Of a stretch of 64,000 nt of DNA, positions 2,391-15,464 are shown in pieces. The position numbers and the translations under genes were made by a program. The first letter of the stretch is position 1. Each line of letters opens with the position of its first letter. The stretch is taken from the IMG/VR virus record IMGVR_UViG_3300020049_008034, positions 1-64,000 of that record. One strand, given 5' to 3'. A model generated the notes under the pieces. The model was given only the letters and a program-made list of their open reading frames with translations. It was not told where the DNA came from and made no database searches. This stretch comes from a virus (lineage: Duplodnaviria > Caudoviricetes).

Positions 2391-2424
2391 TAATGGCCTG
2401 TAGATTTATTTCTACAGGCCATTA
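2391..2424 (+). terminator. Perfect 14-bp hairpin (terminator or processing stem)
   Basis: TAATGGCCTGTAGA-TTTATT-TCTACAGGCCATTA; no strong U tract. Confidence 0.5.
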
Positions 2425-2958: not shown

Positions 2959-3288
2959 ATGATAACGCAAGAACGCGCTAAACAACTAGCTTTTGAATGG
3001 TTTGAAAATGACCATTTTAATCAATTTGCCGTAGACGGTGAATATAAGCCTGAATTTTGTCTCCGTTACCTTATGTCGATTGAATGGGCCATTATTGCAC
3101 CTGAAAGCGCTTTAAGACCGTACAACCACACAAAAAAGAACAGAAAGCAGTTAGAACAACTTGAGGCGTATTTTTCTAAGATTTGCCCTTATCCTTTTGA
3201 ATGGACTAAACATCCTCAATATGGATATCGTGTTCCGCAATTACTGGAGCATGTTGAAGGTGTTCATGGTTTGCGTTTACCTGTTTAA
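2959..3288 (+). CDS. Hypothetical early protein
   Basis: ORF track. Confidence 0.75.
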   Translation: MITQERAKQLAFEWFENDHFNQFAVDGEYKPEFCLRYLMSIEWAIIAPESALRPYNHTKKNRKQLEQLEAYFSKICPYPFEWTKHPQYGYRVPQLLEHVEGVHGLRLPV

Positions 3289-3325
3289 TTCATCCGGGAA
3301 TTTTTCAACCTTTCAATCTAATAAA

Positions 3326-3901
3326 ATGAGAACTGAACAGATTAATATCTATCAATTTTCAGAACTTTCTGAAAAAGCCAAACAAAACGCAATCGAAAAA
3401 CGTCGCTACTGGAATGTGAAACACAATTGGTGGAGCTTCATTTATGACCAGTTCAAAGAAGAACATCCACAATATGAAGATTGTGAAATTTCGTTTTCTG
3501 GTTTTTCTTCTCAAGGTGATGGAGCTAGTTTTACATTTAGGATCGACAGCGCGTATTTTGAAAAGTGGGTAAACGAATTGACTATTATTCCAGAATGGAA
3601 GAAAGCTATTTTAGTTCACTATACGCCACAATTTTACGGAAAGCGCAATAGTTTGCCATACGTACACAAAAGAAGCGTTACAATCGAATTCGACAGCGAA
3701 GAACACCATTACCCAAACATTGATGAGTTTAAAGAACAAATGTATGCTAACTTTTTGGCTTTTCTTCGCTCTGAATATTATACCCACTGCGATGAACTTT
3801 ACCGGACGCTTGAAGAGGAGTATGATTTTAGGACTTCTGATAAATACATAATTGAGAGGATGACAGATTGTGAGTTTTACGAGAATGGCGAAACTTATTA
3901 G
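3326..3901 (+). CDS. Conserved-looking phage early protein
   Basis: Start moved to MRTEQ; YQFSELSEKAKQNAIE N-terminus and acidic C-terminus. Confidence 0.75.
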   Translation: MRTEQINIYQFSELSEKAKQNAIEKRRYWNVKHNWWSFIYDQFKEEHPQYEDCEISFSGFSSQGDGASFTFRIDSAYFEKWVNELTIIPEWKKAILVHYTPQFYGKRNSLPYVHKRSVTIEFDSEEHHYPNIDEFKEQMYANFLAFLRSEYYTHCDELYRTLEEEYDFRTSDKYIIERMTDCEFYENGETY

Positions 3902-3922
3902 GGATTTGGGCCGTTTTGGCCC

Positions 3923-3975
3923 TTCCGTCGCGTTATGTGTGTAACGCCTGAAGAGTCGAAAACGACGAAACGGAA
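3923..3975 (+). ncRNA. Type III hammerhead ribozyme 1
   Basis: TTCCG-TC / GCGTTAT-GTGT-GTAACGC / CTGAAGA / GTCG-AAAA-CGAC / GAAA / CGGAA: full core and three stems; GUC cleavage after 3929. Confidence 0.93.
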
Positions 3976-3994
3976 AACTTTAAATTAACACAAC

Positions 3995-4159
3995 ATGACA
4001 CTTTTTGAACAATTTCATAAAAAAATAGCAGATTGTGCAACATTGCACGACCTTGAGCTAATAAAAGAAGAGGTTAAATCTGCTTTTGATGCTGACAGCG
4101 ACGAAAGGCTTGAACTTCTTGGGTTTGCTGGGATGGTGGAGGATTATTTAACATTCTAA
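3995..4159 (+). CDS. Small hypothetical protein (54 aa)
   Basis: Manual translation MTLFEQFHKKIADC...DYLTF; A-rich start context after the hammerhead. Confidence 0.6.
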   Translation: MTLFEQFHKKIADCATLHDLELIKEEVKSAFDADSDERLELLGFAGMVEDYLTF

Positions 4160-4170
4160 ATTTATCTAAC

Positions 4171-4428
4171 ATGGAATATTTACCAGACAACGCTTTTTGC
4201 ATTATCGACTCCAATCGTGGGATTTATATCCCTAGGGAATTTGCTAGGATTTGGGGTGAAGCATCCACAATGACTGCTGAACAAAGATTTATTCTTTCCG
4301 CCGGTCCTGATCACGTTGATTATTGGGACGTTTGGACCGAAATTGTGGACAATGTTGTTTTTGAGTTTGACGGTGAAAAATGTGTTTTGTGGGAGGACAG
4401 CGATTTATTCGCCGTTCCTGTAAATTAA
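4171..4428 (+). CDS. Hypothetical early protein
   Basis: ORF track. Confidence 0.75.
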   Translation: MEYLPDNAFCIIDSNRGIYIPREFARIWGEASTMTAEQRFILSAGPDHVDYWDVWTEIVDNVVFEFDGEKCVLWEDSDLFAVPVN

Positions 4429-4464
4429 TTCTTTTAGGGTATAGGAATTTAGTTTCCTTCTTTT

Positions 4465-4472
4465 TACCTTTG
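4465..4472 (+). promoter_or_regulatory. Possible -7 promoter element
   Basis: TACCTTTG; no clear TTG at -33; motif 5 nt downstream. Confidence 0.45.
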
Positions 4473-4526
4473 TATTGTTCATCCGGGCCATGTGCACGAT
4501 TTTTTTTCACACTTCAATCTATCCTT

Positions 4527-4889
4527 ATGAAAATCGAATCTTTTAACCCTGTTTTTGCAATAAACGGTAAAGCGCATAAAAAAGAAAAAGGCTATGCGGG
4601 TACTTACCTTATTGTTGACGCAAATTTAAATGTAAAATTGGATTTGCGCATTTACTGGACTGAAGCAAGGTGTTATGCTTGTGTTTGGTTCAATGGTGCA
4701 AGTGGTAGCGGTTATGCTGGTGGATGGGGTTACGAAAAAACCAGCGCTGCCGCTGAAGCCGCATTTCGTTGTGCGGGTCTTAAGATTAGCGGCTTGAGTG
4801 CCAGTGGAATGATTACAGAGGCTTTAGAATTGATCGCTGTTGAAATTCTGGGGCTTGATTCTTTCAAAGTTATACATACTCATCCTTAA
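4527..4889 (+). CDS. Hypothetical early protein
   Basis: Start moved to MKIES; contains SGSGYAGGWGYEKTSAA. Confidence 0.75.
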   Translation: MKIESFNPVFAINGKAHKKEKGYAGTYLIVDANLNVKLDLRIYWTEARCYACVWFNGASGSGYAGGWGYEKTSAAAEAAFRCAGLKISGLSASGMITEALELIAVEILGLDSFKVIHTHP

Positions 4890-4896
4890 TATTTTC

Positions 4897-4941
4897 AGCC
4901 GTGACGGTCTTAGTTAGCGTTCGATTCGCTAAACGGCTCAA
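4897..4941 (+). ncRNA. tRNA-like T-loop minihelix
   Basis: AGCCGT/ACGGCT stem stacked on TTAGCG-TTCGATT-CGCTAA (12 bp in total), ending in CAA followed by the motif. Confidence 0.6.
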
Positions 4942-4974
4942 TTCATCCGGGATTTTCCCACAAATTTTACAACT

Positions 4975-5346
4975 ATGTTACTCAAGGATATTTTCAAGCA
5001 AAAACCACAAAGGCCAGAAGTGGTAAAAAGGCCAATAATCGATGGTTATGGACTTGACCCTGATTTGTTTATAGAACATGCTGAAAAGCTTAAAAAGTAC
5101 CTTGATTATCAAAATAAAGCCTATGTTTTGTGGGCTGAATATGATAACAGTGTTTTAGTTTGGCTTGATTCTATGTTTAAACAAGTCGTTACCGATGTTT
5201 CATACCAATTCCCAGTGGATAAACGAGAAATTGCCCTACAGGCTGCCAAAAAACGTGTAGATATCGGTGATTTTGTCGACTACGATTTACAAGACTGGAT
5301 TGATTTTAGGGATGAACTAGAATTTCTTTCAAATCTTTTTTCATAA
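4975..5346 (+). CDS. Hypothetical early protein
   Basis: ORF track. Confidence 0.75.
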   Translation: MLLKDIFKQKPQRPEVVKRPIIDGYGLDPDLFIEHAEKLKKYLDYQNKAYVLWAEYDNSVLVWLDSMFKQVVTDVSYQFPVDKREIALQAAKKRVDIGDFVDYDLQDWIDFRDELEFLSNLFS

Positions 5347-5363
5347 CCAACAAACTTAAAAAA

Positions 5364-5825
5364 ATGATTACTATTCAAACAAAAGAATGGTTCGACAAGG
5401 TGAATGGAAACACCTATTTTTCCGCTGAAGTTCATCTGGGCAATGATTTAATTATGGTTCTGCCGTTCCAATACGGCTATAATGGCGCAAGGCAGGAGGT
5501 TGAAAATAGATTGGCCAAGCACTTTAGTAGTTGCGCCGAACGTTGGGAATTGCGATTGCGCAAAAATGGCATTGAAATCAGTGAGACTAAAAGTAAAGCG
5601 TTGAAGCGTGAACTTTCCAGGGAAAGCTTTGAAGATTTCACACCTTTCCTGAAAGATGAAAATCTGGCCCTTTATGCGGCGCATTCTATGCGCGAAGGTA
5701 TTCCGCTTAACCATCACACGATGGAAAACGTTTACATTGATTGGCTGACCAATGAAGGTGTTGGTATTACTTTTGCCAATGGTAGTAACGAACTTTATTC
5801 GTTTAATTCTTTCAATTGGTTTTAA
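5364..5825 (+). CDS. Hypothetical early protein
   Basis: ORF track; KEWFDKVNGNTYFSA...PFQYGY. Confidence 0.75.
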   Translation: MITIQTKEWFDKVNGNTYFSAEVHLGNDLIMVLPFQYGYNGARQEVENRLAKHFSSCAERWELRLRKNGIEISETKSKALKRELSRESFEDFTPFLKDENLALYAAHSMREGIPLNHHTMENVYIDWLTNEGVGITFANGSNELYSFNSFNWF

Positions 5826-5858
5826 TTCATCCGGGCTATGCCCACAAAACTTACGATA

Positions 5859-5990
5859 ATGGGAGGAATGACATTAGATTGGGTTTATTCGCCTTATGTG
5901 CCACCTGTAAAGATTGTAGCACCTAAACCAAAGCCTAAAAGCAAACATAATAAAGCCAGGGCGCTACGGTTTAAGGCTAAACATAGATAA
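5859..5990 (+). CDS. Small basic peptide (43 aa)
   Basis: Manual translation MGGMTLDWVYSPYVPPVKIVAPKPKPKSKHNKARALRFKAKHR; bounded by motif copies. Confidence 0.5.
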   Translation: MGGMTLDWVYSPYVPPVKIVAPKPKPKSKHNKARALRFKAKHR

Positions 5991-6016
5991 ACTCATCCGG
6001 GCCATGTGCGGTCCGG

Positions 6017-6068
6017 CCTGTCATGCCGTGTATTGCGGTGTCTGATGATTCGGAAACGATGAAACAGG
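6017..6068 (+). ncRNA. Type III hammerhead ribozyme 2
   Basis: CCTG-TC / ATGCCGT-GTATT-GCGGTGT / CTGATGA / T-TCG-GAAA-CGA-T / GAAA / CAGG; GUC cleavage after 6022; stem II has a U.U pair at its base. Confidence 0.85.
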
Positions 6069-6087
6069 GACGAGAAAAGTTAACAAA

Positions 6088-6405
6088 ATGGGTTACGCTG
6101 TATGGCATTCTCTGGAGATAAAAAACTCCACCGAAAAAGAAGTTATCATGGCTGATTTGCTTTCTGAAAATGAAAATGCAAGCTGTGCGCTAAATGAAGA
6201 TGGAACAGGCGAAGAATGGGAACGCTGGTATGGTATTGAAAAAGACATGCGCGAATTTTCCCTAAAATATCCTGGCGTACTATTTGAGTTTACGAATGAA
6301 GGCGAAGACGGCGACCGTTGGAAGGAATACTATATGGACGGCAAGTACCTTATGGCGTCTGCTATAATTACATACCCTGAGTTTGATGATAGAATGATGT
6401 CTTAG
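6088..6405 (+). CDS. Hypothetical early protein
   Basis: ORF track; FSLKYPGVLFEFTNEGEDG. Confidence 0.75.
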   Translation: MGYAVWHSLEIKNSTEKEVIMADLLSENENASCALNEDGTGEEWERWYGIEKDMREFSLKYPGVLFEFTNEGEDGDRWKEYYMDGKYLMASAIITYPEFDDRMMS

Positions 6406-14678: not shown

Positions 14679-14849
14679 TGTTCGTTATATTGAAGCGCAC
14701 AAGCTTAAACCAAAATCCACGACCATGTAGTTTTTAAAAATAAACTGAAGTACTCTAGGAGTTAGTAGGTTTACAGACTGACCAATAAGGGGAAAAAACG
14801 ATTTTTATTATCATCCGGGCTTTAAATACGATTAGACCCCGGATGAACC

Positions 14850-15018: not shown

Positions 15019-15090
15019 TTTGCAGTAGTTTAGTGGCGAAAATACTCTGCGTGTAGCGGGGCGACGTCGGTTCGAATCCGGCCTGTAAAG
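15019..15090 (+). tRNA. Non-canonical tRNA, nominal anticodon TGT (Thr) with G33
   Basis: TTTGCAG/CTGTAAA acceptor, GTTT/AAAT D stem, CTCTG-CGTGTAG-CGGGG anticodon arm, GTCGG-TTCGAAT-CCGGC T arm, followed by G-CAA. Confidence 0.7.
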
Positions 15091-15390: not shown

Positions 15391-15464
15391 AGCGGAGTAG
15401 CGCAGTTGGTTAGCGCGGGAGGCTCATAACCTCTAGGTCGTCGGTTCAAATCCGGCCTCCGCAA
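15391..15464 (+). tRNA. tRNA-Met (CAT), initiator-like 1:72 mismatch
   Basis: AGCGGAG/CTCCGCA acceptor, GCGC/GCGC D stem, GGAGG-CTCATAA-CCTCT, GTCGG-TTCAAAT-CCGGC; ends A-CAA with no encoded CCA. Confidence 0.92.

Follow-up and report, generated by a model that had tools for sequence, protein, structure and literature searches.

The intergenic segment at positions 3923-3975 (plus strand) of the genome of this uncultured phage is, judged by its sequence, a complete and genuine type III hammerhead ribozyme, conserved in evolution and situated between two small genes. We refer to it as HH1. It forms part of a unit that recurs in this phage subfamily, in which a stop codon, a hairpin, a hammerhead, an A-rich leader and an ATG follow one another, and we think it probable that HH1 is active within this conserved junction, cutting a polycistronic phage message co-transcriptionally at C3929/G3930.

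The phage and the hammerhead HH1

The DNA analysed here (the window) is the first 64 kb of the 77.5-kb IMG/VR virus record IMGVR_UViG_3300020049_008034, the estimated completeness of which is about half. The record is that of a tailed phage and encodes a large terminase, a primase, helicases and virion proteins. The cultured relatives of the terminase are exclusively from phages of Flavobacteriia (Cellulophaga, Flavobacterium, Tenacibaculum and Maribacter, with about 24% identity), a Shine-Dalgarno-like motif is seen at just 1 of 38 gene starts in the window, where the leaders are A-rich, and promoter-like sites of the Bacteroidota type (TTTG..TAnnTTTG) are enriched in the window (11 against 2.5 expected); the host is thus probably a member of the Bacteroidota. 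Many small plus-strand ORFs, most of them without known function, occupy the segment from 1.2 to 15 kb, which probably corresponds to an early region, a timing that we infer from its resemblance to such regions. A strong 14-bp terminator-like hairpin is found in this segment at 2391-2424 (plus strand), after ORF 2100-2375, and a spurious weak match to the Rfam family HrrF at 2300-2425 stems from it. The features discussed below are as follows.

3326-3901, plus strand: upstream gene, encoding 191 aa between its ATG at 3326 and the stop at 3899-3901; matches phrog_5162 (E 4e-25, residues 56-240 of the long ORF)
3899-3901, plus strand: stop codon TAG of the upstream gene
3908-3922, plus strand: hairpin GGGCC-GUUUU-GGCCC (predicted fold), abutting the 5' strand of stem III
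3923-3927, plus strand: 5' strand of stem III, UUCCG
3928 and 3929, plus strand: U16.1 and C17, the predicted cleavage site, with the scissile bond at C3929/G3930
3930-3947, plus strand: stem I, GCGUUA/UAACGC, 6 bp, loop UGUGUG
3948-3954, plus strand: core strand CUGAAGA (C3 to A9), invariant in the family except at N7
3955-3966, plus strand: stem II, GUCG/CGAC, 4 bp, loop AAAA, with the G10.1-C11.1 pair present
3967-3970, plus strand: core GAAA (G12 to A15.1)
3971-3975, plus strand: 3' strand of stem III, CGGAA
3976-3994, plus strand: A-rich leader without a Shine-Dalgarno motif
3995, plus strand: ATG of the downstream ORF, 18 nt past the last position of the Rfam model match (3976)
3995-4159, plus strand: downstream ORF, 54 aa, with no family assignment found
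5993-6070, plus strand: second module, with the motif TCATCCGGG at 5993, a 7-bp hairpin at 5996-6015 and a type III hammerhead (HH2) at 6015-6070
15019-15090 and 15391-15464, plus strand: tRNA genes (41.4 and 63.7 bits), with several copies of TCATCCGGG around them on both strands

The hammerhead core is complete in HH1, with CUGAAGA, GAAA, U3928 paired to A3970 and a residue other than G (C3929) at position 17. Stems I and II are closed by loops and stem III, which consists of 5 bp plus an A-U, is open, as expected for type III, and no mispair adjoins the core. The canonical hammerhead secondary structure has a predicted energy of -25.5 kcal/mol, against -27.0 for the minimum free energy (MFE) structure, in a nearest-neighbour model that ignores the tertiary core. 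The earlier note on this DNA had described a complete core with three stems in the type III arrangement, preceded by the GGGCC-GTTTT-GGCCC hairpin just past the stop codon at 3901 and followed by an A-rich start at 3995; the sequence reads exactly as described, the Rfam family Hammerhead_3 matches it from end to end, and the A-rich leader and ATG spacing recur in relatives.

The Rfam match (RF00008, Hammerhead_3) spans 3922-3976 and covers model positions 1-54 of 54, with a score of 41.5 bits and an E-value of 6e-8 within 301 nt, or 1.3e-5 across the whole 64-kb window, both strands and all 4227 families. The score lies under the RF00008 gathering score of 48.5, a cut-off that is a curation threshold and not a biochemical feature, and for this reason the default Rfam scan missed HH1, which appears only with E-value thresholds; at gathering thresholds the scan of the window yields two tRNAs only. 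Relative to the model, HH1 has a deletion of 4 nt in loop II and an insertion of 5 nt in loop I, which account for the loss of score. The Infernal and Rfam check proposed in the earlier note came out significant as an end-to-end match, with a score that stays short of the gathering threshold. A leave-one-out covariance model of 39 phage hammerheads, from which the window sequence was excluded, gives HH1 68.4 bits and an E-value of about 3e-19.

Apart from HH1 and HH2, the family models found no hammerheads in the window, nor in the 13.5 kb of the record that lie beyond it, and no other ribozyme class was detected at E <= 1 when the whole window was searched with all 4227 Rfam families. Among the other matches to the pattern CUGANGA..GAAA in the window, the one at 6042 alone is a hammerhead. 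The HH1 hairpin at 3908-3922 was considered as an intrinsic terminator and rejected, since it is not followed by a T-run and is absent from the list of terminator-like hairpins.

The upstream gene is predicted to encode a phage protein of unknown function, for which there is no Pfam or PDB match and for which the ESM Atlas gives viral hypothetical proteins only. In another viral locus (L100:997-1044, minus strand) the ATG of a phrog_5162 homologue is preceded, at a distance of 14 nt, by a type I hammerhead, so that this gene family is accompanied there by a hammerhead that has another topology and sits on the gene's other side.

Conservation, the junction unit and a second hammerhead

A metagenome scan with the stem I of HH1 itself recovered three contigs of related phages (L124, L125 and L126), the genes of which have 67-75% nucleotide identity to the window. 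The core and stem I of HH1 are unchanged in all three. Stem II, which is GUCG/CGAC in the window, is replaced by GCUC/GAGC in both L124 and L125 and by GUUC/GAAC in L126, and these two to three compensatory pair changes between orthologues indicate that HH1 is under selection as an RNA fold and does not simply share DNA identity with them. The upstream hairpin has the same GGGCC/GGCCC stem in the orthologues but another loop, and they also share the beginning of the leader (AACUUUAAA) and the distance to the ATG. The HH1 module is 85% identical in L124 and L125, where the flanking sequence on both sides is non-homologous to the genes of the window; homology begins at the stop codon at 3901, and different ORFs lie at the same ATG distance. 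No match was found with megablast of window positions 3000-6000 or with blastn of a typical family module, both against cultured phages, nor with the exact HH1 stem I pattern in viral contigs, and searches of viral contigs for loci seeded with the upstream protein or the product of ORF 4380-4889 returned no relatives.

The wider subfamily was collected by a search with a pattern of the core and stem II, which matched at least 119 viral contigs, and a script selected from these matches 40 distinct type III examples of the same build, some of the loci being near-duplicates. The record behind one match (L045) has a hammerhead pattern but no type III copy of this subfamily. In this shared build, stem I is a hairpin of 18 nt with 6 bp and the loop UGWGUG, stem II has 4 bp and is closed by NAAA, and stem III is short. 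In the family alignment (A1, n=40), 94.7% of pair cells are paired, a figure that is partly built in, since stem II was fixed by the pattern and at least four stem I pairs and at least three stem III pairs were required for selection. The number of pair cells changed on both sides is 184, compared with 52.6 in shuffles; all six stem I pairs covary across the 40 members, with three to six standard pair types each and 99.6% of cells paired, and four stem III pairs change on both sides. Both loop sequences, UGWGUG in loop I and NAAA in loop II, are conserved among the family members, and a tertiary contact between these loops is required for fast hammerhead cleavage at physiological Mg2+. In related records, hammerheads occur as same-strand arrays of three to five within about 3-5 kb.

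The junction unit, which we define here and which is no published family, consists of a hammerhead abutted by a hairpin, with a stop codon 20-50 nt before the hammerhead and, beyond an A/U-rich leader, an ATG 10-45 nt after it. In the window, the stop codon lies 20 nt before the model start, the gap to the hairpin is 0 and the ATG is 18 nt downstream. The unit was characterized in 63 family members, including extra copies found by the models, by folding the 33 nt immediately upstream of each; these counts are not fully independent because some loci are near-duplicates. The mean MFE of the upstream segments is -11.4 kcal/mol, against -3.8 in control windows of the same loci (Wilcoxon p 6e-12), with values of -8 kcal/mol or better in 50 of the 63, and in 53 of the 63 the predicted hairpin ends exactly at the first position of the ribozyme. 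A stop codon is usually present 20-50 nt upstream, and the ATG of an ORF of at least 40 aa lies at a median of 21 nt downstream (within 10-45 nt in 48/63). The leaders contain 46% A, 29% U, 17% C and 8% G, and an SD-like motif is present in 6 of 48. The hairpin, which the earlier note had already described ahead of the ribozyme and read as a 3' protector, is thus a conserved abutting element across the 63 members as well as in the orthologues, and the succession of stop codon, hairpin, hammerhead, A-rich leader and ATG is a recurring junction unit in this phage subfamily. We note that a near-identical hairpin, GGUGUCUUCAAAGACACC, is found ahead of the hammerhead in many otherwise different viral contigs (for example L027, L093, L106 and L016), and that it sometimes occurs with no ribozyme nearby, as in the downstream flank of L027 1636 and the upstream flank of L047.

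The second hammerhead of the window, HH2, has a GUC with predicted cleavage after 6022 and is followed by an ATG at 6088. Its scores are 25.1 bits with Rfam and 45.6 and 45.2 bits with the family models R1 and R2 (E about 1e-11). It departs from HH1 in having a mispair next to the core, U10.1.U11.1. The HH2 module, which runs from the motif through the hairpin and the ribozyme into the first part of the leader, is the same in L126 except at two positions over about 87 nt (96.6% identity), whereas the flanks have diverged to 67-75% identity or show no homology. One of the two differences changes a hairpin G.U to G-C, and the U10.1.U11.1 mismatch is kept in L126, so that HH2 may be a deliberately slower-cleaving variant. 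The ORF that follows (6088-6405) matches the C-terminal half of phrog_6306 only; the possibility that HH2 splits a gene was discarded, there being no upstream ORF that matches the N-terminal half.

The 9-mer TCATCCGGG that precedes HH2 is widespread in the window, with 91 occurrences at one mismatch or fewer against 11 expected. About 49 of these are exact copies on both strands (for example at 2056, 2378, 2766, 3290 and 5993 on the plus strand and at 14846, 15386 and 16359 on the minus strand), and they show a strand bias, being mostly on the plus strand up to about 16 kb, all on the minus strand from 16 to 27 kb and mostly on the plus strand from 27 to 64 kb. In the region of small genes the copies are on the sense strand just past stop codons; elsewhere they are mostly antisense to genes. 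The motif looks like an oriented element acting at the DNA level. An intact motif, TTCATCCGGG, is present before the HH1 hairpin in L124 and L125 (alignment A3), and the window has at 3893-3907 a degenerate form, TTATTAGGG, that overlaps the stop codon. With TTCATCCGGG or TTATTAGGG before HH1 and TCATCCGGG before HH2, both hammerhead modules of this phage lineage are directly downstream of the motif.

Proposed processing and alternative readings

The earlier note had interpreted HH1 as a ribozyme that separates cistrons. The motif, its conservation and covariation, and the layout of the module with its hairpin, leader and ATG spacing all hold computationally, with cleavage itself as a prediction; what we infer from them is that the site is transcribed and cut and that mRNA stability and translation are affected. 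Most probably, the recurring unit serves to divide a long early transcript into individual messages. HH1 would be transcribed within a polycistronic plus-strand message of small, probably early genes, a reading against which the terminator-like hairpin at 2391-2424, upstream of HH1, has been counted, and would cleave itself between C3929 and G3930 during transcription. Before the cut, the upstream hairpin could stack on stem III, which it abuts, and so steady this short helix; after it, the shortness of stem III (5 bp plus an A-U) would favour separation of the products.

The upstream message would then end 7 nt past the hairpin, in single strand, with a 2',3'-cyclic phosphate. A hairpin together with a cyclic-phosphate 3' end should hinder exonucleases and polyadenylation, as extrapolated from general bacterial RNA decay and not from Bacteroidota data, and the hairpin-capped end produced here may therefore resist 3' exonucleases and polyadenylation; a benefit of the 5'-OH to the downstream RNA would be an extrapolation of the same kind, from general bacterial RNA decay and not from Bacteroidota data. 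The downstream message would carry the 5'-OH at its start, then stems I and II in folded form and then the unstructured A-rich leader, which would suit SD-independent initiation, and its start codon would be insulated from whichever gene sits upstream.

The conservation of the modules between dissimilar flanks allows another reading, in which the hairpin, hammerhead and leader mark the boundary of a portable gene cassette, as a recombination linker or a semi-selfish module, and self-cleavage is secondary. The 85% identity of the HH1 module in L124 and L125 between non-homologous flanks, with homology starting at the stop codon at 3901, would be expected under this reading, as would the 96.6% identity of the HH2 module to L126 against 67-75% or no homology in its flanks. 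Homologues of the flanking genes are, moreover, arranged differently in L100, with a type I hammerhead instead, and the genes flanked by hammerheads are not constant in the cases described by Perreault et al. (PMC3088659). Set against this are the compensatory changes in stem II, which bespeak selection on the RNA fold, and the fixed position relative to stop and start codons, which fits a role at the mRNA level. We regard a primarily recombinational role as unlikely, and note that it could be compatible with the separation of cistrons.

We are also doubtful that cleavage is regulated or destabilizing, lowering or timing the expression of a neighbouring gene in the way that glmS-type cleavage triggers decay. 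Regulation has been raised for phage hammerheads, especially for slow variants (PMC3088659), and the U10.1.U11.1 mismatch of HH2, conserved in L126, could mean that its cleavage is tuned to be slower, so that such a role is plausible mainly for HH2. HH1 has no ligand-binding or sensor extension, and both new ends look protected, the 3' end by the conserved hairpin and the 5' end by its structure; its consensus core, its G10.1-C11.1 pair and its loops of the family consensus argue for predicted cleavage that is fast and constitutive.

HH1 and HH2 are both of type III, share their polarity and are separated by 2.1 kb, with a similar spacing in L126, which raises the further idea that the two, cutting after 3929 and 6022, excise an RNA of 2,093 nt whose ends are joined into a circle, like retrozymes or viroid-like RNAs. 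The 5'-OH and cyclic-phosphate ends would suit ligation by RtcB or by the ribozyme, and the possibility is mentioned by Perreault et al. (PMC3088659), who saw neither circular nor spliced products. HH1 and HH2 have different stem III arms (UUCCG/CGGAA and CCUG/CAGG), so that a chimeric hammerhead able to ligate would have about three weak pairs, and related phages have arrays of three to five copies at irregular spacing; a circle is accordingly very improbable. That HH1 is a chance match or an inactive relic, as its score below the Rfam gathering score might suggest, is scarcely credible, as the score statistics (E 1.3e-5 with Rfam, about 3e-19 with the independent family model) together with the covariation exclude chance, all core positions are consensus and the orthologues carry compensatory substitutions.

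Relation to known hammerheads and implications

The closest known systems are the clustered hammerheads of prophages, which flank genes and which, in the Agrobacterium tumefaciens array, cleave both in vitro and in Escherichia coli (Perreault et al., 2011; PMC3088659). As in those prophage and phage clusters, the hammerheads described here are intergenic and predicted to cleave in cis, several occur per region on one strand, and what they flank, one gene or a small block of genes, is variable. They are unlike them in being of type III, with a stem I hairpin of constant length (18 nt, UGWGUG) and only 4 bp in stem II (NAAA), in that a hairpin abutting the ribozyme and an A-rich leader lacking SD motifs complete a regular unit, and in that the terminase relatives infect Flavobacteriia; neither the hairpin nor the leader layout is mentioned in the sections of PMC3088659 that were consulted. 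The same source describes the HHphage of haloviruses HF1 and HF2, a hammerhead that stands 13 nt ahead of the start codon of the gene opening an early polycistronic transcript, and the 5' end mapped there is within 3 nt of the cleavage site. The spacing of 13 nt is analogous to the 18 nt from the end of HH1 to its ATG, although HHphage belongs to an archaeal virus and is a structurally unusual hammerhead variant that requires high salt or Mg (PMC3088659).

The members of Rfam RF00008 (viroids, satellite RNAs and retrozymes; clan CL00010) share with HH1 the core, the topology with stem III open and the GUC cleavage triplet. HH1 differs from them in lying between protein genes of a DNA phage and not in a rolling-circle replicon, and from the model in its shorter loop II (4 nt against about 8) and longer loop I. 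In synthetic ribozyme insulators such as RiboJ, a cut just before the start codon gives a uniform 5' end and makes expression independent of the sequence that precedes it. In RNA viruses of fungi and plants, self-cleavage alone can enable translation initiation (PMC13725137). HH1 is distinguished from the first of these, which is engineered, and from the second, which are eukaryotic cap-independent systems, by being a natural junction of a bacterial virus, which, unlike both, seems also to determine how the upstream message ends at its 3' side.

What bacterial and phage hammerheads do biologically is still described as largely unknown (PMC6765202). The processing of long phage transcripts has been proposed for phage hammerheads (PMC6765202, PMC3088659), so that the predicted separation of cistrons by HH1 is a standard existing hypothesis, which is supported by the agreement of the comparative data. 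The kind of element is already known, and knowledge of the ribozyme class is unchanged by this locus; what is useful and modestly new is the detail of how regularly hairpin, ribozyme and leader are arranged in these phages. The layout is regular and testable, with a hairpin on the side of the future 3' end and a short unstructured leader on the side of the future 5' end, and specific predictions follow from it about how stable mRNAs are and how they are translated in hosts without Shine-Dalgarno initiation. We suggest, tentatively, that the hairpin, the type III hammerhead and the A-rich leader together make up, in phages of the Bacteroidota type, a portable cassette for the punctuation of cistrons, which would replace terminator/promoter pairs and might serve also as a junction for the exchange of genes. 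If this is true, a single self-cleavage would set both a hairpin-capped cyclic-phosphate 3' end upstream and a structured 5'-OH, SD-independent leader downstream, and the conserved cassette would be the site at which these phages swap small early genes.
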